17,571 nucleotides of DNA, taken from a virus. Lineage: Duplodnaviria > Heunggongvirae > Uroviricota > Caudoviricetes. A program made the position numbers and the translations under genes. The stretch lies in the IMG/VR virus record IMGVR_UViG_2740892230_000036, one strand, 5' to 3'. Shown piece by piece: positions 522-17,571 of this stretch. Numbering within the stretch: position 1 is the first letter of the stretch; each line of letters begins with the position of its first letter. The notes under the pieces were generated by a model. That model saw nothing but the letters and a program-made list of their open reading frames with translations. It ran no database searches and had not been told where the DNA came from.

Positions 522-554
522 AGCACGATGCCGATAAGTGAAAGGCATCGTGCT
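522..554. repeat. Perfect 11-bp inverted repeat (stem-loop) in host flank
   Basis: agcacgatgcc (522-532) / ggcatcgtgct (544-554) around an 11-nt loop gataagtgaaa. No adjacent T-run on either strand. Confidence 0.6.
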
Positions 555-618
555 ATGAAGGAGGATTCTATCGATGTGGTCAATGGAAGACGGTTACCAG
601 AGATAGGGCTTATGCATA

Positions 619-645
619 AAAAAATAAGCCCGTGTAAGGGAGATT
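619..645. other. P2 attachment-site core at the int-proximal prophage junction (attL by analogy)
   Basis: aaaaaataagcccgtgtaagggagatt matches the 27-bp P2 att core as I recall it. Its reverse complement is the 3' terminator end of the CyaR (RyeE) sRNA, where P2-type elements sit in E. coli K-12. Lies ~80 bp from the int stop. Confidence 0.75.
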
Positions 646-724
646 TAGGGTGTCACCAGTAGGGGCTTTCAACGGTACAATGCGGGTTTGAGCGGCATAA
701 ATTACCACTGAAAGCCCTTAAACG

Positions 725-1738
725 TTACTCTACTGTGGACACTGTGTGGACACTCTCGGCCTCAGTACCACCTCTTAGCGGATTAAGAGAAATGGCGTCC
801 TGAAGGTACTCTGGCGCAAAATGAGCGTAAACCATAGTTTGCTCAATCCGCGTGTGACCTAGTATCCGTTGTAGCGTGATAATACTTCCTCCATTAATCA
901 TGAAATGAGTGGCAAAGCTGTGCCTTAGTGCATGTGTGGCTTGCCCCATTGGCAAATCCGGTTTTATTGCTTTCATTGTTCGTCTGAAGCGAGGGTAATC
1001 AGCATCAGGGAATAAAAAACCTCGTTTGTTATCCGCGATCATTTTGGCAACAGCCTCTGAGATCGGGACGGTGCGTGGTTTGTTTGTTTTCGTTTTAACA
1101 AACGTGACGCGGTTATGGATGATATTTTCTGCTTTCAAACGAGCTGCTTCTCCCCAACGTGCTCCAGTACTCAGGCAAAGAATCGCAATCTTTTTATTGT
1201 CGCCGTCAAGAGCAGCAAGCAGTAAGGCAATTTCTTCCTGCGTGAGATAGCCTGTGTCTGGTTTTTCCTCCTTAAGCCTTTTTGTCCCTCTGATAGGGTG
1301 CTCACCAAAGAATAACTCCGCTTCAATCAGGGCTGTAAACATGCCGCTAATACATGTTAAATCACGATTGATACTCGAAGGTTTAATACCCTGACTTCTT
1401 CGGGTGGCGCAGTACTGGCTGATAAGCGATTTCGTAATTTGAAATGCGCATGGGTCATTCGTTATTTTTGTGAAGATTTCAATTTTTCCAAGATTAGATT
1501 TCCCATGCTCTTCGTGTTTACCCTTTAAATCCCACCAGATCTGTGTCAGCTCCGACAGACGTCGCTTGTCTGTTGGTTTTGATAGCCATTCTTTATTGTG
1601 GTGGTTGTACAACGTGTATTTCTCGAAAGCGACAGCTTCGCTTTTCTTATCAAACTTCCTACGGATGCGTTTTCCATTACGTCCAGTAGGGCGGATGTCC
1701 ACTTCATATCGACCATCATCGAGTTTTTTGATTGCCAT
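725..1738 (-). CDS. int: Tyrosine integrase (P2 Int), 337 aa
   Basis: ORF track 337 aa; sequence recognised as P2 Int with the C-terminal tyrosine-recombinase motifs (…HALRHSFATH…LGHTRIEQTMVYAH…). SD GGAGGG 7 nt upstream of ATG; transcribed with C. Confidence 0.93.
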   Translation of the reverse strand: MAIKKLDDGRYEVDIRPTGRNGKRIRRKFDKKSEAVAFEKYTLYNHHNKEWLSKPTDKRRLSELTQIWWDLKGKHEEHGKSNLGKIEIFTKITNDPCAFQITKSLISQYCATRRSQGIKPSSINRDLTCISGMFTALIEAELFFGEHPIRGTKRLKEEKPDTGYLTQEEIALLLAALDGDNKKIAILCLSTGARWGEAARLKAENIIHNRVTFVKTKTNKPRTVPISEAVAKMIADNKRGFLFPDADYPRFRRTMKAIKPDLPMGQATHALRHSFATHFMINGGSIITLQRILGHTRIEQTMVYAHFAPEYLQDAISLNPLRGGTEAESVHTVSTVE

Positions 1739-1853: not shown

Positions 1854-2153
1854 TTAACCAGTCTTTTGACCGGAGTGGGGCGACGTTGTTTCGTTTTGCC
1901 CAAAGTGTGCGAGAGCGGGCGCAATTTGCCCGGACTCAGGAGCGATCTGATTGGTCATGAACCATAAAGTGTATTTGGTGAATTGTGGGGTCTGCAGGAT
2001 GTTCATCATGACATCTGTTGGAGGTGTTGAACGACCACTTTCATAGTAACTCAGCGTGCCATACGGAACCCCTGTTAAATCAGCAAGTTGTTGTCTGCTC
2101 AAATACTCTGATTTTCGCATTAAGACTATCTTCTCGCTTATCGTGTTTGACAT
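1854..2153 (-). CDS. C: Immunity repressor C, 99 aa
   Basis: 99-aa ORF directly upstream of int on the same strand, length and sequence as remembered for P2 C; N-terminal HTH (…LSRQQLADLTGVPYGTLSYYESG…). Confidence 0.9.
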   Translation of the reverse strand: MSNTISEKIVLMRKSEYLSRQQLADLTGVPYGTLSYYESGRSTPPTDVMMNILQTPQFTKYTLWFMTNQIAPESGQIAPALAHFGQNETTSPHSGQKTG

Positions 2154-2267: not shown

Positions 2268-2543
2268 ATGAGCAAGCAAGTAACACTCATGACTGATGCG
2301 ATTCCTTATCAGGAGTTCGCAAAACTAATAGGAAAATCGACAGGAGCGGTTCGTCGGATGATCGATAAAGGAAAGCTGCCTGTAATTGATATGACCGATC
2401 CACAATCAGCTTCAGGTCGTGCAGGTGAATATTGGGTATACCTTCCGGCATGGAATAACGGACTAAAACTGGCTTATGAAAGCCGCCCTAAAGAGATTCG
2501 TGACGGCTGGTTGATGTGGTTAGGTCTCGGTGAACCACGTTAA
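2268..2543 (+). CDS. cox: Cox (excisionase / Pc repressor), 91 aa
   Basis: 91-aa ORF, SD GGAGGA 6 nt upstream, first gene of the rightward operon divergent from C; matches P2 Cox position and length. Confidence 0.9.
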   Translation: MSKQVTLMTDAIPYQEFAKLIGKSTGAVRRMIDKGKLPVIDMTDPQSASGRAGEYWVYLPAWNNGLKLAYESRPKEIRDGWLMWLGLGEPR

Positions 2544-4307: not shown

Positions 4308-6582
4308 AGCCTCCGGGCGTTTTGTCCCTCCGTCAGCATTTGCCGCAGGCACCGGTGAGACGTTTACCGGTGCTTATGCATGGAACGCGCCACGCGAGGC
4401 CGTCGGGCGCGAAAGACCCCTTACACGTGACGAGATGCGTCAGGTGCAAGGTGTTTTATCCACGATTAATCGCCTGCCTTACTTTTTGCGCTCGCTGTTT
4501 ACTTCACGCTATGACTACATCCGGCGCAATAAAAGCCCGGTGCACGGGTTTTATTTCCTCACATCCACTTTTCAGCGCCGTTTATGGCCGCGTATTGAGC
4601 GCGTGAATCAGCGCCATGAAATGAACACCGACGCGTCGTTGCTGTTTCTGGCAGAGCGTGACCATTATGCGCGTCTGCCGGGGATGAATGACAAGGAGCT
4701 GAAAAAGTTTGCCGCCCGTATCTCATCGCAGCTTTTCATGATGTATGAGGAACTTTGCGATGCATGGGTTGATGCACATGGCGAGAAAGAATCGCTGTTT
4801 ACAGATGAGGCGCAGGCGCATCTGTATGGTCATGTTGCTGGCGCTGCACGTGCTTTCAATATTTCCCCTCTCTACTGGAAAAAATACCGTAAAGGACAGA
4901 TGACCACGAGGCAGGCATATTCTGCCATTGCCCGCCTGTTTAACGATGAGTGGTGGATTAGTCAGCTTAAAGGCCAGCGTATGCGCTGGCATGAGGCGTT
5001 ACTGATTGCTGTCGGGGAGGTCAATAAAGACCGTTCACCTTATGCCAGTAAACATGCCATTCGTGATGTGCGTGCGCGCCGCCAGGCAAATCTGGAATTT
5101 CTTAAATCGTGTGACCTTGAAAACAGGGAAACCGGCGAGCGCATCGACCTTATCAGTAAGGTGATGGGCAGTATTTCTAATCCTGAAATTCGCCGGATGG
5201 AGCTGATGAACACCATTGCCGGTATTGAGCGTTACGCCGCCTCAGAGGGTGATGTGGGGATGTTTATCACGCTTACCGCGCCGTCAAAGTATCACCCGAC
5301 ACGTCAGGTTGGAAAAGGCGAAAATAAAACCGTCCAGCTTAATCACGGCTGGAATGATGAGGCATTTAATCCAAAGGATGCGCAGCGTTATCTCTGCCGT
5401 ATCTGGAGCCTGATGCGCACGGCATTCAAGGATAATGATTTACAGGTCTACGGTTTGCGAGTCGTCGAGCCACACCACGACGGAACGCCGCACTGGCATA
5501 TGATGCTTTTTTGTAATCCACGCCAGCGTAACCAGATTATCGAAATCATGCGTCGCTATGCGCTCAAAGAGGATGGCGACGAAAGAGGAGCCGCGCGAAA
5601 CCGTTTTCAGGCAAAACACCTTAACCGGGGCGGTGCTGCGGGATATATCGCGAAATACATTTCAAAAAATATCGACGGCTATGCACTGGATGGTCAGCTC
5701 GATAACGATACCGGCAGACCGCTGAAAGATACTGCGGCGGCTGTTACCGCATGGGCGTCAACGTGGCGCATCCCGCAATTTAAAACGGTTGGCCTGCCGA
5801 CAATGGGAGCTTACCGTGAGCTACGTAAATTGCCTCGCGGCGTCAGCATTGCTGATGAATTTGACGAACGCGTGGAGGCTGCACGCGCCGCCGCAGACAG
5901 TGGCGATTTTGCGTTGTATATCAGCGCGCAGGGCGGGGCAAATGTCCCGCGCGATTGTCAGACTGTCAGGGTCGCCCGTAGCCCGTCGGATGAAGTTAAC
6001 GAGTACGAGGAAGAAGTCGAGAGAGTGGTCGGCATTTACGCGCCGCATCTCGGCGCGCGTCATATTCATATCACCAGAACGACGGACTGGCGCATCGTGC
6101 CGAAAGTTCCGGTCGTTGAGCCTTTGACTTTAAAAAGCGGCATCGCCGCGCCTCGGAGTCCTGTCAATAACTGTGGAAAGCTCTCCGGTGGTGATACTTC
6201 GTTACCGGTTCCCACACCTTCTGAACATGCCGCAGCCGTGCTTAATCTGGTTGATGACGGTGTTATCGAATGGAATGAGCCAGAGGTCGTGAGGGCGCTC
6301 AGAGGTGCATTAAAACACGGACTGAGAACACCAAATCGTCAGCAGAGAAACGGAAGCCTGTTAAAACCACATGAAATAGCGCCATCGGCCAGACTGACCC
6401 GGTCGGAACGAACGCAAATTACCCGTATCCGCGTTGACCTTGCTCAGAACGGTATCAGGCCGCAGCGATGGGAGATTGAGGCGCTGGCGCGTGGGGCAAC
6501 CGTAAATTATGACGGGAAAAAATTCACGTATCCGGTCGCTGATGAGTGGCCGGGATTCTCAACAGTAATGGAGTGGACATGA
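4297..6582 (+). CDS. A: Rolling-circle replication initiator A (HUH endonuclease), 761 aa
   Basis: ORF track 4255-6582; in-frame ATG at 4297 gives 761 aa, the P2 A length. HUH-type motif (…GTPHWHMMLF…) and paired active-site tyrosines (…GYIAKYISKN…). Confidence 0.92.
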   Translation: MAVKASGRFVPPSAFAAGTGETFTGAYAWNAPREAVGRERPLTRDEMRQVQGVLSTINRLPYFLRSLFTSRYDYIRRNKSPVHGFYFLTSTFQRRLWPRIERVNQRHEMNTDASLLFLAERDHYARLPGMNDKELKKFAARISSQLFMMYEELCDAWVDAHGEKESLFTDEAQAHLYGHVAGAARAFNISPLYWKKYRKGQMTTRQAYSAIARLFNDEWWISQLKGQRMRWHEALLIAVGEVNKDRSPYASKHAIRDVRARRQANLEFLKSCDLENRETGERIDLISKVMGSISNPEIRRMELMNTIAGIERYAASEGDVGMFITLTAPSKYHPTRQVGKGENKTVQLNHGWNDEAFNPKDAQRYLCRIWSLMRTAFKDNDLQVYGLRVVEPHHDGTPHWHMMLFCNPRQRNQIIEIMRRYALKEDGDERGAARNRFQAKHLNRGGAAGYIAKYISKNIDGYALDGQLDNDTGRPLKDTAAAVTAWASTWRIPQFKTVGLPTMGAYRELRKLPRGVSIADEFDERVEAARAAADSGDFALYISAQGGANVPRDCQTVRVARSPSDEVNEYEEEVERVVGIYAPHLGARHIHITRTTDWRIVPKVPVVEPLTLKSGIAAPRSPVNNCGKLSGGDTSLPVPTPSEHAAAVLNLVDDGVIEWNEPEVVRALRGALKHGLRTPNRQQRNGSLLKPHEIAPSARLTRSERTQITRIRVDLAQNGIRPQRWEIEALARGATVNYDGKKFTYPVADEWPGFSTVMEWT
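6148..6167 (+). other. Candidate P2 ori / A-protein nick region inside the A gene
   Basis: gcgcctcggagtcctgtcaa lies in the 3' quarter of A, where the P2 origin is known to reside. The exact nick-site sequence is from memory and unverified. Confidence 0.35.
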
Positions 6583-7034
6583 TGGCAAAAATTCACGAGG
6601 TAAAGCTGCACGCAAAATATTTCGACCTTGTGCTGGAAGGAAAGAAACGCGCAGAGTTTAGGAAAAATGACCGTAATTATGAGCACGGGGACACGTTGAT
6701 TTTGCATGAATGGGTGCAGGGTGTGTATACGGGGCGAAAGGTTGAAGCCCGGATAACAGATGTTACTGACCTGTCAGATTGGCTGGAAGATTATGTCTTG
6801 CTAAGTATTGAGCTGCTTAATACAGGCGCATATGAGATTGTGAACTGGAAAGAACTTAGTGAGCGTGGTCTGGTATTCAGAATTAATCATGAAATTATGC
6901 ATCAGCTCGGCCTTGCTGTTATGTATGAACCAGAGACGGGGATGTCTGGCGGGGCAATGGTTGCCACGGATGGAGCATGGAACTATTCAGATGAACAGAT
7001 GGAGCGTGCACCGCAAAACGGGTGGCTTGGATAA
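6579..7034 (+). CDS. P2 orf91-like protein with ASCH/PUA-like (DUF3850-type) fold, ~151 aa
   Basis: ATG at 6579 overlaps the A stop; motif …KYFDLVLEGKKRAEFRKNDRNYEHGDTLILHEW… is typical of ASCH-like phage proteins. Start could be 6582. Confidence 0.75.
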   Translation: MMAKIHEVKLHAKYFDLVLEGKKRAEFRKNDRNYEHGDTLILHEWVQGVYTGRKVEARITDVTDLSDWLEDYVLLSIELLNTGAYEIVNWKELSERGLVFRINHEIMHQLGLAVMYEPETGMSGGAMVATDGAWNYSDEQMERAPQNGWLG

Positions 7035-7240
7035 TGCACAGAATACCAGGCGAGATACCGCACCATAAAACTAAAAATATCAAGCTGATGGCCATTGTTC
7101 ACCGTCTACAGCAGATTATGGTCAACGAAAATCTGACGCCCGATGAGCTAGTCGGGTGTGCCGAAATAGTCCGGGATAATTACGTATGGCTTAGCTATAT
7201 CGGTCAGTCCAGCGCTGCATCGCCACCACGCAGACGATAG
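7034..7240 (+). CDS. Hypothetical small protein (68 aa) at the hotspot boundary
   Basis: ATG overlaps the orf91 stop (TAATG); backbone-like composition; no recognisable domain. Alternative GTG start at 7022. Confidence 0.5.
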   Translation: MHRIPGEIPHHKTKNIKLMAIVHRLQQIMVNENLTPDELVGCAEIVRDNYVWLSYIGQSSAASPPRRR

Positions 7241-7429
7241 AGAACGCAGCCAGCTCAGGATTGGCGGGGGATAGAATAACGAGCATAGTGATGCGATTAG
7301 ACAAACAGACTGACTGGTACACTTAGGATGGTTATAGTGGTTTCTAAGTGCTTTAGCGATACATCTGGTGGACTGTTTTACCAACCTCAGAGTTAGCTGA
7401 ATTTTTAACAAAATACCATTTTGATAGAT

Positions 7430-7457
7430 TTGCCTAATTTATTAATTAAACTATACT
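7430..7457 (+). promoter_or_regulatory. Candidate sigma70 promoter for the plus-strand cargo operon (-35 TTGCCT 7430-7435, 16-bp spacer, -10 TATACT 7452-7457)
   Basis: Hexamers read directly in the AT-rich leader ~90 bp upstream of the 7549 start. Many alternative AT-rich hexamers exist nearby. Confidence 0.3.
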
Positions 7458-7548
7458 GGACTTATACACAGTGTTCTGTTAATTGTTAGGTTGGTAAGAT
7501 ATTGTGAGGAGGTGATTACTATCTTGGCATCAATCAAGTGGAGGTTAA

Positions 7549-7785
7549 ATGATGAATATATTTGAACGTATTATAGGTAAAGCTGCCATTGAAAAGGAAA
7601 GAGAACTGGCGAGGAGGCTTGAAGCATCTGGAACAAACACTGTTGAGGTGGTAGGTCGAGGCGCGATTATCACGTCTAAAGAAGACTTGGCAAGCTCAGA
7701 TACAGTAAAATTGATGAAAATTAAAGCAAGAAGAATAGTTTCTGAGCAGGTAAAGCAAGAAGAAAAAATGGCTAAAGGGAATTAA
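7549..7785 (+). CDS. Cargo gene 1: small soluble charged protein (78 aa), unknown function
   Basis: SD GTGGAGG 4-7 nt before ATG 7549/7552; AT-rich codon usage unlike the P2 backbone; stop 2 nt before the next gene's ATG. No domain recognised. Confidence 0.75.
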   Translation: MMNIFERIIGKAAIEKERELARRLEASGTNTVEVVGRGAIITSKEDLASSDTVKLMKIKARRIVSEQVKQEEKMAKGN

Positions 7786-7787
7786 TA

Positions 7788-8549
7788 ATGTTTGCTTTAT
7801 TAATTATTCCATTACTTGTGAGTGGTTATATTGTATTAACCACTCATCCTTATCATTTCTATAGATTACACCGTTATGATGGGCAGTTGTTATATATGAA
7901 GTCAGCCGCCTTTGGTCTGTGGTGTTTTATATGGACATTGATTATAGCTTACTTAATAAAATGGATATGTCCGAGCTTCCATCCTGTCACGATGGTTCGG
8001 GAACAATTAGATCTCAAACTTAGTGATAATGGTACTGAAAGAATCATAGGATGGATGATTTTACTTTCATGTGGATCGATATTTTTGGCTTGGATATGGA
8101 GTGCCGGTGCTAGATATTTGGTTATATATAGAGCTAAAATTATAAATTATATCCAAGGGGTAAAGGCTGCCAATATTGATTATGAGAATCTTGTCATGCT
8201 AAGGATGAGGCAAGAGCTTATTAATGATAATCCAATGGATGAAATATTTTTTGATTCGTTAGTTGATAGACGTTCAATACTTATTACGTTGCAAAATAAA
8301 AAGACATATGTAGGAATTGTTAACGCATTAGGTGAGCCTAACGAGAAAGAAGGACCTAACCAGTATGTTTCAATCTATCCTATTATCTCTGGGTATAGAG
8401 ATAAGGATTCATTGAAAGTAATCTTGGTGAATGAATATAGAGAACTTGAGGATGCTGATACTAGTATCATCTTTCCACTAAAAGAAATTTCGCAAGTTTC
8501 TTGGTTTGATATGGATATTCATAAAATAGTTGAAAATAATAAGGTGTAG
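7788..8549 (+). CDS. Cargo gene 2: membrane protein with 3 N-terminal TM helices plus ~145-aa C-terminal soluble domain (253 aa), unknown function
   Basis: Hydrophobic stretches FALLIIPLLVSGYIVLTT, AAFGLWCFIWTLIIAYLIKWI and IIGWMILLSCGSIFLAWIWSAGA, followed by a hydrophilic domain. Operonic with the 78-aa gene. Confidence 0.85.
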   Translation: MFALLIIPLLVSGYIVLTTHPYHFYRLHRYDGQLLYMKSAAFGLWCFIWTLIIAYLIKWICPSFHPVTMVREQLDLKLSDNGTERIIGWMILLSCGSIFLAWIWSAGARYLVIYRAKIINYIQGVKAANIDYENLVMLRMRQELINDNPMDEIFFDSLVDRRSILITLQNKKTYVGIVNALGEPNEKEGPNQYVSIYPIISGYRDKDSLKVILVNEYRELEDADTSIIFPLKEISQVSWFDMDIHKIVENNKV

Positions 8550-8582: not shown

Positions 8583-10847
8583 TTATTTTTGACGAATCCT
8601 GATTTTTGGTTGTTCACGAACAACAATATCAGTTTCTTTCCAACCAAGATTATTTATTTCAACCTCGGCTTCGTTGTAGACTGTAGTAGAATTGGCAAGA
8701 GATCTTAACGTAATAGCCAATACAGCACGTTGAGGTGAAGATAGAGGCTCTTGCTCTGCTCGTCTCTGAACATCAAGTTTAAGTCTCCATTGCTCCCCAT
8801 TTATACCTTGCGGAAATTGTTTTCTATAAACTTTGACTGGAGACCATTTGAAGCCATTTTCTATCAGTACCTTTTCAAATAATTCACTCTTTTCTTTTAT
8901 TTGTGGAATTTTTCCGCTATGTATCCATTTAGCGTTAACTGGATCATAAGTGTAAGTCCCGAATGACACATCCACATTAGAACGGCAATATTCAGATGGG
9001 TAGTCATAATCAAGCGGTGGAGAATAAACGAGTGTCATAATAATTTCACCTGTGAATTTTCCATCCTCAGTACGTAATGACTGTGGTATTACAAATGGCG
9101 TTCTACTGAATTCAATACCTTCTCGGGTATCTATTTCAAATAGAAATGTAATCTCATTTTTATTGCAACCAATAATATCATTTATATGATCGCTTGGGCG
9201 TCCAAATCCTTGATAATTAAACGCATAATGCTCCGTTTTGGCTGGTGAGTTTTTTAACGCAGAATGAATTAATAGTGCCTTGATACGTTCAGGCGATGGT
9301 GAAATAGAACCATTAACATCTAGTTCATGCCACAGTGATGCCGCTAAACTTGAGATTAACGGTGCTGATAAACTTGTGCCAATACTTTCGCAAAGAGCAT
9401 TGTCCTCGCCAATAGCTATGATTCCGGTATGTTCACAGTTTAATTTACTGTCACAATTACCTCCAAAGTGATTTATCTCTGGTTTGGGTATAAAGGCTGG
9501 GCCGGGACCTCTTCTAGAAAAAGATGAAGGTTCAAATCTTTTGACCACAGAGTCAGACGATTCTAAATGGGCAACTGAGCCAACAGTTAATGAACGAACA
9601 GAATCTGCGGGGGCTGATATTCTGTCATGCCCACCTAATTCTTGAGGAGGCCAGGTTCGTTGAGGATCATAAATGTAGTTGCCGGATGCTACGACGAAAA
9701 GACAATCATGCTCATCATGAAGTGCATTTAAAAAATGCCCCAATTCAGAGAAGCTGTCTTCAGAACATGGGGATTGACAACCTAATGACAGGTTCCATAC
9801 ACGTACTTCTGGATAGGTGGTCACAGCCTCTCGGATAGCTTTCATTAATTGTGGCAATTTGAGCGTACCATCTTTGGGAAAGGCTGCAACATCAACAATT
9901 TCAGCTTGGCATTGAGGAAAACCAGCATAGTTATTCAACCATCTTCCATTAATTGCTAAACTTGCAACCATGTTCCCATGAGAATAGTCGTGTTCTCCTT
10001 TTACTAAATCTAAACTATCCCAAATCCATGGCCTAAGTATGTTGTTATTGGGATCGACTCCGCTATCTATAATTCCGAGTAGTGGATAATGTTTATCCTC
10101 TTGAGGTAAGGGAAAATCATCTAGGTCTAGAGTTTCAGCAGGAATATATTGCGATACTGTATGAGTAAGACCAAATGTTGGCATAGGTTCTAATTTTCGT
10201 ATGCCAATAAAACTTGCCAGTTGGGCGATGTTATCATTCCCTTTTACTTCATATATACTCAAATCTGAACTGATATCATACTTTTTGGGTTTTTGTATTC
10301 CTAGTTCATCTGCAAATTCCATTAATTCTTTGTCGATACTGCGGTTAGTTGTTCTATCTTTATGGTCAAAGAGTTTCAGAAGAAAACTATCTGATTTATT
10401 TTTATCTATAACATCATGGTTAAGACTAAAAGGTTCGATCTTTTCAATTACAGCAATATGTACTGTCCCATTATGAGAATTAGTGCTATTTTCAATTTTT
10501 TTGCGAAGTTGTGCTAACCCTTTTTCAGTAACACTTATAAGTAATTCTCCAAAATTATCACTGCCTATTACGGGACATGTATTATCACCTAATAGGCTTG
10601 ATGGGCGATGTGACTTAGCAAGAGCTTTTTCATGAAGAGTAACTCTAGCCACCGCCGGTATATTGGGCCATTTTTTAAATGAGCTCTGGAAAAAATTTTT
10701 AACGTCATCGACTTCTTGTTTGAGTCTATTTTTTAGACTAGTTGTTACTGTTCGGATAGGTTGTTTCTTTCCGAAATTATATGTTTTTTCAGTAAAATCT
10801 TGAGGTGTCGCCTCAATTATTTTTATTGGTCTTTCTTTGTTACTCAT
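8583..10847 (-). CDS. Cargo gene 4: subtilisin-like serine protease (peptidase S8), 754 aa, with uncharacterised N- and C-terminal extensions; IetS-like
   Basis: Catalytic motifs in canonical order: Asp (…LLGIIDSGVD…, ~D261), His (…DYSHGNMVASLA…, ~H290), oxyanion Asn (…VVASGNY…), Ser (…IGTSLSAPL…, ~S492; codon at 9372-9374). Start ATG overlaps the ATPase stop (ATGA). Confidence 0.88.
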   Translation of the reverse strand: MSNKERPIKIIEATPQDFTEKTYNFGKKQPIRTVTTSLKNRLKQEVDDVKNFFQSSFKKWPNIPAVARVTLHEKALAKSHRPSSLLGDNTCPVIGSDNFGELLISVTEKGLAQLRKKIENSTNSHNGTVHIAVIEKIEPFSLNHDVIDKNKSDSFLLKLFDHKDRTTNRSIDKELMEFADELGIQKPKKYDISSDLSIYEVKGNDNIAQLASFIGIRKLEPMPTFGLTHTVSQYIPAETLDLDDFPLPQEDKHYPLLGIIDSGVDPNNNILRPWIWDSLDLVKGEHDYSHGNMVASLAINGRWLNNYAGFPQCQAEIVDVAAFPKDGTLKLPQLMKAIREAVTTYPEVRVWNLSLGCQSPCSEDSFSELGHFLNALHDEHDCLFVVASGNYIYDPQRTWPPQELGGHDRISAPADSVRSLTVGSVAHLESSDSVVKRFEPSSFSRRGPGPAFIPKPEINHFGGNCDSKLNCEHTGIIAIGEDNALCESIGTSLSAPLISSLAASLWHELDVNGSISPSPERIKALLIHSALKNSPAKTEHYAFNYQGFGRPSDHINDIIGCNKNEITFLFEIDTREGIEFSRTPFVIPQSLRTEDGKFTGEIIMTLVYSPPLDYDYPSEYCRSNVDVSFGTYTYDPVNAKWIHSGKIPQIKEKSELFEKVLIENGFKWSPVKVYRKQFPQGINGEQWRLKLDVQRRAEQEPLSSPQRAVLAITLRSLANSTTVYNEAEVEINNLGWKETDIVVREQPKIRIRQK

Positions 10848-12007
10848 AATATCTCTCTATAGTTCTTAGTTAGCCTTGACACTTTAGCATTTGAAAGCCC
10901 TAGTATTTTTGCTATCTTTCGTATTGTAAATCTTTTGGGATTGTATTCTCTGAGAGTGGTCACAATCTTTATAAGTAAATTATCTTCTTCATCAAATGTA
11001 ACTCCCTTCGCTTCTAAGATAGCCTCGACTAAAAATCGGGTATCGATTTGTTTATTATTGTAAACCAGAGCATGTCGCTCAGATCTTAAGCAGCATTGTT
11101 CTATAAATGAGCAGTTTAGCCCTGAGGATATTTCCGCAAGGTCATCAACAAAATCGTCATATGTGGCTTTTATGTTTGAATATTGTTCAAATAGTTGTTT
11201 TCTGACTTCAAAATCAGGCAATCCAATAGATATTCTATACTCAAAGCGCCTCCAAACTGCGCTATCTAGAAGATTTTCATGATTACTTGCAGCAATCAAT
11301 ATTGTTTCTTCAGGTAGATTGTCAATATTTTGCAATAAAGAAACCACCACCCTCTTCAGTTCACCTAACTCATGCTGATCATCTCTAGCCTTTGCTAGAG
11401 AATCTAGTTCATCTAGAAATAAAACACATGGTGCTTTACTTGCATACTCAAATAGCTGCCTGATATTTTTAGAAGTAGACCCCAGATATGATGAGACTAA
11501 GGAGTCACATCTTGCAGTAAGAAGCGGTAAATTTAGACAGGATGCAATATATTTTGATGTCAAGGTTTTACCACAACCTGGTGGCCCATATAAAATCATA
11601 GAGGATGTCACGCCAAGACCGGCATCCTTTAATTCTTTAGCTCGTTCAGTGAAAGTCAAAAATTCTTTAATTTTTTTCAGAGTGCTATCTTTCAACAATG
11701 GGAGTTGAATTTCAGAAGACGGTTGAGTTACGTCTGCTAAATCAAATTTAGTTTCTTTATCTACAGGTAATGTATCAAGACGTTCAAAAATAGGTGATGT
11801 ACTACGTGATACTTTCTGCAAGTTAAACGTGTTTTTATCTTGAATACTGCCTCTAATGGCTGAAGCAAGCTCAGGCAGCCCCATAGAATCATAGGAACGC
11901 GCGAGTTTCGAAGCCTGCCGAACAAAAGCAACTTTATCCCCTTTGAGTCCAAGACTGATAAGCTGCGAAAGTATCTCGTTTGTGGTCATTTGTGATACAA
12001 ACCTCAT
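10844..12007 (-). CDS. Cargo gene 3: AAA+ ATPase (387 aa) with C-terminal HTH-like tail; IetA-like
   Basis: Walker A …ILYGPPGCGKTL… (K~147), Walker B …CVLFLDELDSL…, sensor-1 …IAASN…, Arg-finger region …VWRRF…. C-terminus …IRKIAKILGLSNAKVSRLTKNY… resembles a helix-turn-helix. Alternative start at Met7 (11989). Confidence 0.88.
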   Translation of the reverse strand: MRFVSQMTTNEILSQLISLGLKGDKVAFVRQASKLARSYDSMGLPELASAIRGSIQDKNTFNLQKVSRSTSPIFERLDTLPVDKETKFDLADVTQPSSEIQLPLLKDSTLKKIKEFLTFTERAKELKDAGLGVTSSMILYGPPGCGKTLTSKYIASCLNLPLLTARCDSLVSSYLGSTSKNIRQLFEYASKAPCVLFLDELDSLAKARDDQHELGELKRVVVSLLQNIDNLPEETILIAASNHENLLDSAVWRRFEYRISIGLPDFEVRKQLFEQYSNIKATYDDFVDDLAEISSGLNCSFIEQCCLRSERHALVYNNKQIDTRFLVEAILEAKGVTFDEEDNLLIKIVTTLREYNPKRFTIRKIAKILGLSNAKVSRLTKNYREIL

Positions 12008-17406: not shown

Positions 17407-17571
17407 ATGACGAGTCCCGCACAGCGCCACATGATGCGGGTCTCGGCAGCGATGACCGCGCAGCGGGAAGCCGCCCCGCTGCGACATGCAACTGTCTATG
17501 AGCAGATGCTGGTTAAGCTCGCCGCAGACCAGCGCACACTGAAAGCGATTTATTCAAAAGAGCTGAAGGCC
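17407..17571 (+). CDS. M: Terminase small (endonuclease) subunit M, N-terminal 55 codons; continues past the window
   Basis: ATG at 17407, 4 nt after the N stop, open to the window end (MTSPAQRHMMRV…); P2 M position. Confidence 0.8.
   Translation, partial: MTSPAQRHMMRVSAAMTAQREAAPLRHATVYEQMLVKLAADQRTLKAIYSKELKA

Follow-up and report, generated by a model that had tools for sequence, protein, structure and literature searches.

What is the 3ʹ end of a host small RNA gene doing beside the integrase gene of a phage, and where is the rest of that gene? The earlier note on this DNA had proposed that an attachment (att) core at 606–650 overlaps the terminator of the CyaR sRNA, with the reverse complement of 619–645 corresponding to the 3ʹ stem and T-tail of CyaR. 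In the window (the whole 17,571-nt stretch analyzed here), alignment places the core as follows:

619–645, minus strand: P2 att common core, 27 bp, matching both the annotated P2 attP core and K-12 cyaR at 27/27 positions

The plus-strand letters of the core are AAAAAATAAGCCCGTGTAAGGGAGATT and their reverse complement is AATCTCCCTTACACGGGCTTATTTTTT; the surrounding sequence, 601–660, reads agatagggcttatgcataaaaaaataagcccgtgtaagggagatttagggtgtcaccagt. The reverse complement of 619–645 is nt 61–87 of the 87-nt cyaR gene (b4438) of E. coli K-12 MG1655, with 27 of 27 positions identical. The same 27-mer is identical, again at 27 of 27 positions, to the P2 attP core (AF063097, 24356–24382, annotated “attP” and “Int attP core”). 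Alignment with K-12 cyaR and with the P2 attP region therefore bears out both the overlap of core and terminator and the match to the 3ʹ end of CyaR. The range 606–650 does contain the core, but its exact extent is 619–645. The 27-mer is single-copy in the window; in 200 shuffled sequences it was never matched, even when three mismatches were allowed.

Which part of CyaR is shared? In the predicted fold of K-12 CyaR, with which the Rfam consensus structure is consistent, the terminator consists of an 11-bp stem (nt 52–62 paired with nt 69–79), a 6-nt loop (nt 63–68) and a tail at nt 80–87 (UAUUUUUU). At nt 61–87, the core takes in only the last two nt of the 5ʹ arm, and then everything from the loop through the 3ʹ arm to the end of the U-tail.

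One edge of the core varies among strains. The A/T run there (window 618–624; compared in loci L022, L010 and L026–L033) is polymorphic: some E. coli/Shigella flanks have a seventh A, which gives seven U after the CyaR stem in the empty site, and other flanks, together with all P-arm junctions (lysogens and K-12), have six A/T. Hence, lysogeny or a K-12-type remnant can alter the length of the CyaR U-tract template by one.

To the right of the core, the DNA is that of phage P2. In a megablast search with 484–1800 as the query, identity to P2 begins exactly at 619 (query position 136) and continues ungapped through int at 99.4%. Several Peduovirus isolates are 99.8% identical from 619 on (megablast against phage genomes). 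P2 features were placed by ungapped alignment to P2 24356–25537, at a constant offset of 23737:

646–759, no strand: P2 Pʹ arm, from the 99.4% ungapped alignment to P2

662–735, no strand: Cox-binding region, transferred from the P2 record

733–759, no strand: Int arm-type sites of the Pʹ arm (P2 24470–24496, annotated Pʹ arm)

725–1738, minus strand: int, encoding the tyrosine integrase of P2, for recombination at the core (336/337 aa shared with P2 Int)

1854–2153, minus strand: C, the immunity repressor, for prophage maintenance (an ORF; P2 C is 25591–25890, at the same offset)

2268–2543, plus strand: cox, for the directionality factor of excision, which binds to the Pʹ arm (an ORF; P2 cox is 26005–26280, at the same offset)

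The int product contains the Pfam domains Int_N (PF24624) and Phage_integrase (PF00589), and the equivalent of cox in strain 2013C-3264 is annotated as a “regulatory phage cox family protein”. Direct repeats of TGTGGACACT lie between the core and the bulk of int, at 734–743 and 745–754, and fit the arm-type Int site consensus tgTGGaCa (PMC3448106). The earlier note had also described the sequence on the int side as diverging from CyaR, and this is the case: past 645, the window reads ...cacccta where cyaR reads ...cctgtgt. The int side is unlike cyaR because it is the P2 Pʹ arm.

A separate structure is found in the same arm. An inverted repeat at 660–720, with 18-nt arms that are 83% complementary, directly follows the int stop codon and lies within the P2-annotated Cox-binding region. 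Its hairpin dominates the folded minus-strand RNA of 600–724 (125 nt, z = −4.0) and is without a U-tract.

To the left of the core lies host DNA:

484–618, no strand: host flank (B arm), intergenic, downstream of yegR, from E. coli genome matches and the yegR context

This flank is matched in 5369 of the 5426 complete E. coli genomes, and it is found directly after yegR in strain 2013C-3264 and in K-12. P2 gave no BLAST match to 484–618, its matches starting at 619, and to the left of 619 there is no ogr, ogr terminator or IHF site, all of which precede the core in P2. Together, the P2 identity from 619 and the yegR-downstream DNA on the left identify an int-proximal prophage–host junction. 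In the lambda convention, the int-proximal junction is attL, with the structure B-O-Pʹ. We conclude that 619–645 is almost certainly the core of the int-proximal junction (attL, B-O-Pʹ) of a P2 (Peduovirus) prophage at its preferred E. coli site at the 3ʹ end of cyaR. We take the cyaR locus to be the classical preferred P2 site, locI. The left end of the P2 prophage is thereby fixed to the base, at 619, and its insertion site is named as locI/cyaR.

The DNA beyond this flank does not belong next to it. Positions 1–473 carry two-thirds of baeR, namely its 3ʹ part, which is on the minus strand and starts at the stop codon; ten Ns (474–483), 135 nt from the core, join the baeR part to the yegR flank. 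In closed genomes, baeR lies past the ogr/cyaR end, on the other side of the prophage and ~3 kb away. Since baeR and the yegR flank are on opposite sides of the prophage in those genomes, the Ns represent an assembly join (scaffold or contig) between sequences that are not physical neighbors; the same positions rule out the Ns as ten masked nt of contiguous DNA. From 484 onward, the sequence is unbroken through flank, core and Pʹ arm, and hundreds of closed genomes contain the same junction.

Also downstream of yegR is a perfect 11-bp inverted repeat, AGCACGATGCC / GGCATCGTGCT, with an 11-nt loop (window 522–554). It aligns opposite the P2 ogr/F-operon terminator hairpin, with no clear sequence homology. 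Between strains, its stem is kept and its loop is variable.

How widespread are the junction and its core? The same flank–core–Pʹ junction is present in 812 of 5426 complete E. coli genomes (at least 80% of query 484–760), and it is 100% identical in 25 of 25 among the matches listed (of the 812). When a synthetic unoccupied attB was used as the query, the flank and cyaR were found within ~660 nt of one another in 4572 genomes; this count merges empty sites with small K-12-type remnants because pieces up to ~660 nt apart were joined. With one genome per species (L005–L024), the exact 27-mer was found in Escherichia, Shigella, 12 Kluyvera genomes and Enterobacter hormaechei, and no exact match was returned for the Salmonella or Klebsiella representatives. 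It is joined to the cyaR body in 20 of 21 places, the remaining one being the int-side junction of E. ruysiae. Beyond the end of cyaR, the DNA differs from genus to genus, and in Kluyvera and Enterobacter hormaechei it is unrelated in each lineage. Hence, the 3ʹ end of cyaR is a boundary of variable DNA well beyond E. coli. In K. intermedia and in E. coli ECDA1023, a diverged P2-like P arm, 77% identical to P2, is found beyond cyaR.

Where, then, is the rest of the sRNA gene? The window ends at 17571 within the major capsid gene, and the ogr-side junction is outside it. The earlier note had predicted that integration would regenerate the sRNA terminator at the ogr-side junction, and the opposite prophage end in equivalent lysogens does carry an intact cyaR. 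Strain 2013C-3264, in which the int-side junction is 100% identical to that of the window, has the order yegR-core-int-C-cox-...-D-ogr-core-cyaR-yegQ-yegP-baeR. The second exact core of this strain (L004, 33305–33331) is continuous with an intact cyaR body, and Rfam reports a full-length CyaR_RyeE at this far junction with 100.7 bits (gathering score 47). The P arm–core–cyaR arrangement, with intact cyaR, is also found in E. ruysiae and in E. coli ECGI0523 (L020 and L021). From these other lysogens, we infer that cyaR is likewise intact at the source prophage’s own ogr-side junction.

How would integration into an sRNA gene leave that gene complete? We propose a mechanism in which Int/IHF strand exchange and Cox-dependent excision are taken from established P2 and tyrosine recombinase biology and from the P2 GenBank annotation. 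P2 Int (725–1738) would bind the arm-type sites and the 27-bp core, the Pʹ arm sites being at 733–759 and the P arm at the other end of the prophage. Together with IHF, Int would then exchange strands between the attP core and the chromosomal 27 bp of the same sequence. Because phage and host share the same 27 bp, both junctions keep a copy of the core. Everything in cyaR between the start of the terminator loop and the final U is contained in these 27 bp; in equivalent lysogens, the ogr-side junction accordingly retains a complete and unchanged cyaR. The int-side junction in the window has only a promoterless 27-nt fragment on the Pʹ arm, predicted by folding to form no terminator hairpin and expected to have no RNA function of its own. 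Cox (2268–2543), bound to the Pʹ arm, would steer the reaction backward, toward excision.

The window copy of cyaR is without the promoter, the seed region, the RNA body and the 5ʹ terminator arm, and the Pʹ arm provides ...GGUGACACCCUA in place of the 5ʹ stem arm. There was no Rfam match to CyaR at the gathering threshold (47 bits) over the whole window, and none in 484–800 at E-values up to 10, where only two chance-level matches were returned; a fragment of 27 nt is expected to give no CyaR match. Folding predicted the CyaR terminator stem in K-12 and in the sequence of the unoccupied site, but not at the junction, and a terminator scan found no terminator-like site there. Folding and the terminator scan together rule out the orphan core as a terminator for int. 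On the basis of these predictions, the 27-nt cyaR piece in the window appears to be a non-functional orphan duplicate. For annotation, we caution that the cyaR-like 27 nt at this position are an orphan duplicate and not a second sRNA gene.

The host flank may itself have a phage history. Two features of the flank are relevant here:

571–606, plus strand: putative decayed P2 P-arm Int arm-type site, with one TGTGGTCA repeat intact and the second degenerate

606–631, no strand: 8-bp inverted repeat, GGGCTTAT (606–613) / ATAAGCCC (624–631), formed by host flank and core

A local alignment of the flank (core excluded) with P2 sequence to the left of the core paired TCGATGTGGTCAATG-GAAGACGGTTACCAGAGATA with TCGATGTGGTCAATGTGTGGAC-GTGACCAGAAATA (P2 24293–24327). 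The alignment score was 38, and 5000 shuffles gave a mean of 14.2, a standard deviation of 2.1 and a maximum of 26. The P2 partner of 571–606 is an annotated P-arm Int-binding site (24293–24320). A “distant” blastn search of the phage collection with 540–618 did not detect the P-arm similarity, because a match this short does not reach a significant E-value against a whole database; the same search returned only prophage-derived records that include host flank (vB_EcoM-720R8 and “Phage TP”).

Other strains preserve more of the phage end. In Escherichia sp. MOD1-EC7003 (L025), the cyaR locus is unoccupied and the left part is of the E. coli type, and before the core comes the IHF-site segment of P2, diverged but at full length (taaatccttctgtttcattgagtgagtcgca). 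E. coli E118 (L034) has a shorter version of this segment. In typical E. coli, only gggcttatgcat(a) is left where MOD1-EC7003 has the IHF-site segment, and this short remainder creates the 8-bp inverted repeat. The significant alignment and the graded intermediates (MOD1-EC7003 and E118) support a fossil origin for the flank. Judging from these sequence comparisons, the locI attB of E. coli very probably derives, by erosion, from the ogr-side end of an ancient P2-like prophage that had reached fixation in the species.

The K-12 cryptic prophage PR-X is informative in this respect. In the K-12 RefSeq annotation, PR-X begins within cyaR and continues with ogrK and a fragment of D. At its yegR-side junction (the yegZ/yegR boundary, equivalent to window 619–636), the first 18 nt of the core (AAAAAATAAGCCCGTGTA) are fused to the gene D fragment. 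Since the core is cut to 18 nt, the deletion that made the remnant ended inside the core. Read in this way, the K-12 remnant shows what would be a younger stage of the same erosion process as the locI flank.

Has any part of the fossil been kept for a reason? Across a diverse set of 13 E. coli/Shigella flanks, the longest invariant run, 574–590 (ATGTGGTCAATGGAAGA), falls on the surviving arm-type repeat. This invariance has a P of about 0.02 in a weak test, the sample being small and the sequences related. It seems unlikely that 574–590 was retained for a function, for example helping Int to capture locI or biasing integration versus excision. The P-arm-like host flank may be a new observation. 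If the fossil origin is correct, today’s “host” attachment site was shaped by earlier integrations of the same kind, and the DNA that comes after CyaR in K-12 and in lysogens would then be phage-derived rather than host.

Could the junction be something other than the end of a prophage at cyaR? The resemblance to CyaR might be coincidental, reflecting a generic terminator-like sequence unrelated to the sRNA gene: the match is only 27 nt long, and the window has no covariance-model match. However, the match is exact at 27 of 27 positions where none is expected by chance, its chromosomal context (yegR) is the cyaR neighborhood, and in equivalent lysogens the second copy runs without a break into full-length cyaR. 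Taken together, the 27/27 match, the yegR context and the far junctions of lysogens refute coincidence, the probability of which is vanishingly small. A different possibility is that the sequence is the attP of an unintegrated (circular or permuted) P2 genome and not a prophage–host junction. Such a genome would account for the core and everything rightward of it being P2, and the left flank does share a 36-nt stretch with the P2 P arm. Nonetheless, that flank is the yegR-downstream DNA common to 5369 of 5426 E. coli genomes, it is without the ogr gene, ogr terminator and IHF site, and the P2 BLAST match does not start until 619. The identity of the flank refutes an unintegrated attP, which we regard as extremely improbable.

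The prophage–host junction being the preferred reading, its orphan core could still serve a purpose. The earlier note had drawn attention to the inverted repeat that involves the core, and the repeat is indeed present: 8 bp, 100% complementary, with a 10-nt loop. Orphan core and repeat might together form a hairpin that terminates or stabilizes the int and yegR transcripts, which converge here, or might provide a phage-derived RNA with a new 3ʹ end. The perfect 606–631 hairpin is the centroid structure on both strands, and the repeat is kept in most E. coli/Shigella flanks; the chance expectation for perfect 8-bp repeats touching a given 27-nt site is ~0.02, which is only mildly improbable. 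Against this, the hairpin is no more stable than shuffled sequences (z = 0.0 for the minus strand in a 73-nt context, and −1.9 for the plus strand), its U-run is in the loop rather than after the stem, and no terminator-like site was called. In the unoccupied site, the fold of the CyaR terminator stem outcompetes the 8-bp repeat. Moreover, the repeat matches at only 6 of 8 positions in E. coli E118 and is absent from P2 attP and from the cyaR loci of Escherichia sp. MOD1-EC7003, Kluyvera and Enterobacter. The left arm of the repeat belongs to the host flank and apparently derives from decaying P-arm DNA. A functional hairpin is therefore very unlikely. On these comparisons, the 8-bp repeat is not a property of the att system, and folding, the terminator scan and the comparison of loci gave no sign of it acting in the att machinery or as a terminator. 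The preferred reading remains an attL whose core is an orphan duplicate.

Farther into the window, the prophage carries cargo in the variable region between genes A and Q:

10844–12007, minus strand: IetA, AAA ATPase (PADLOC)

8583–10847, minus strand: IetS, S8 subtilase-like (PADLOC)

6546–7034, plus strand: protein with ASCH/DUF3850 and DUF7415 domains (domain match)

IetA and IetS are an anti-phage defense pair (8583–12007, minus strand; PADLOC E = 9e-132 and 1e-273). The A–Q region is a known defense hotspot of P2-like phages, and P2 itself carries tin/old there (PMC9122126). Further cargo is found between gene A and IetS, at 6546–8549 on the plus strand. It includes the ASCH/DUF3850 and DUF7415 protein and small ORFs at 7022–7240, 7549–7785 and 7788–8549 that matched only PHROGs of unknown function (phrog_11386, 37504 and 3630).

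How does this locus compare with known systems? The closest is P2 attP and the locI attB: the core is the same, the Pʹ arm with its arm-type repeats shows 99.4% identity, Int differs at one of 337 aa, and the int-C-cox order is the same. There is no difference from the P2 att system, although the window copy is a recombinant junction (host flank, core and Pʹ arm) and not attP. The cargo does differ, this prophage having IetAS in the A–Q region where P2 has tin/old. The K-12 cryptic prophage PR-X (the ogrK-yegZ remnant) occupies the same chromosomal site; there too, cyaR is joined to a full core, and the flank on the yegR side is the same. PR-X keeps only ~630 bp (the P arm, ogr and part of D), whereas the window has the left end of a full-looking prophage with an intact core. 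The CyaR/RyeE sRNA (Rfam RF00112) is identical over its last 27 nt, and the window is without the gene itself.

A P2 prophage junction at cyaR is already known and well documented. According to the E. coli W genome paper, P2-type elements in W, K-12 (ogr-Dʹ) and B are inserted at the “cyaR RNA” (PMC3032704), and Bobay et al. 2013 describe ryeE (i.e. cyaR) in E. coli as a previously known phage target, citing Wassarman et al. 2001 (PMC3603311). P2-like and other phages, including 186 and Fels-2, carry the 3ʹ end of an RNA gene such that integration restores the gene (PMC3448106). The same is true more broadly of phages and islands that integrate in the 3ʹ ends of tRNA, tmRNA and sRNA genes (PMC3448106, PMC3603311, PMC3333887), among them 186 in tRNA-Ile, Fels-2 and SopE-phi in ssrA, and Salmonella phages at ryeB/sdsR. 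The junction described here illustrates this known principle, by which a structured-RNA gene survives lysogeny because the temperate phage brings along a copy of its 3ʹ end. In contrast to tRNA-type sites, the target here is an Hfq-dependent sRNA, and of its intrinsic terminator only the loop, 3ʹ arm and tail are duplicated.
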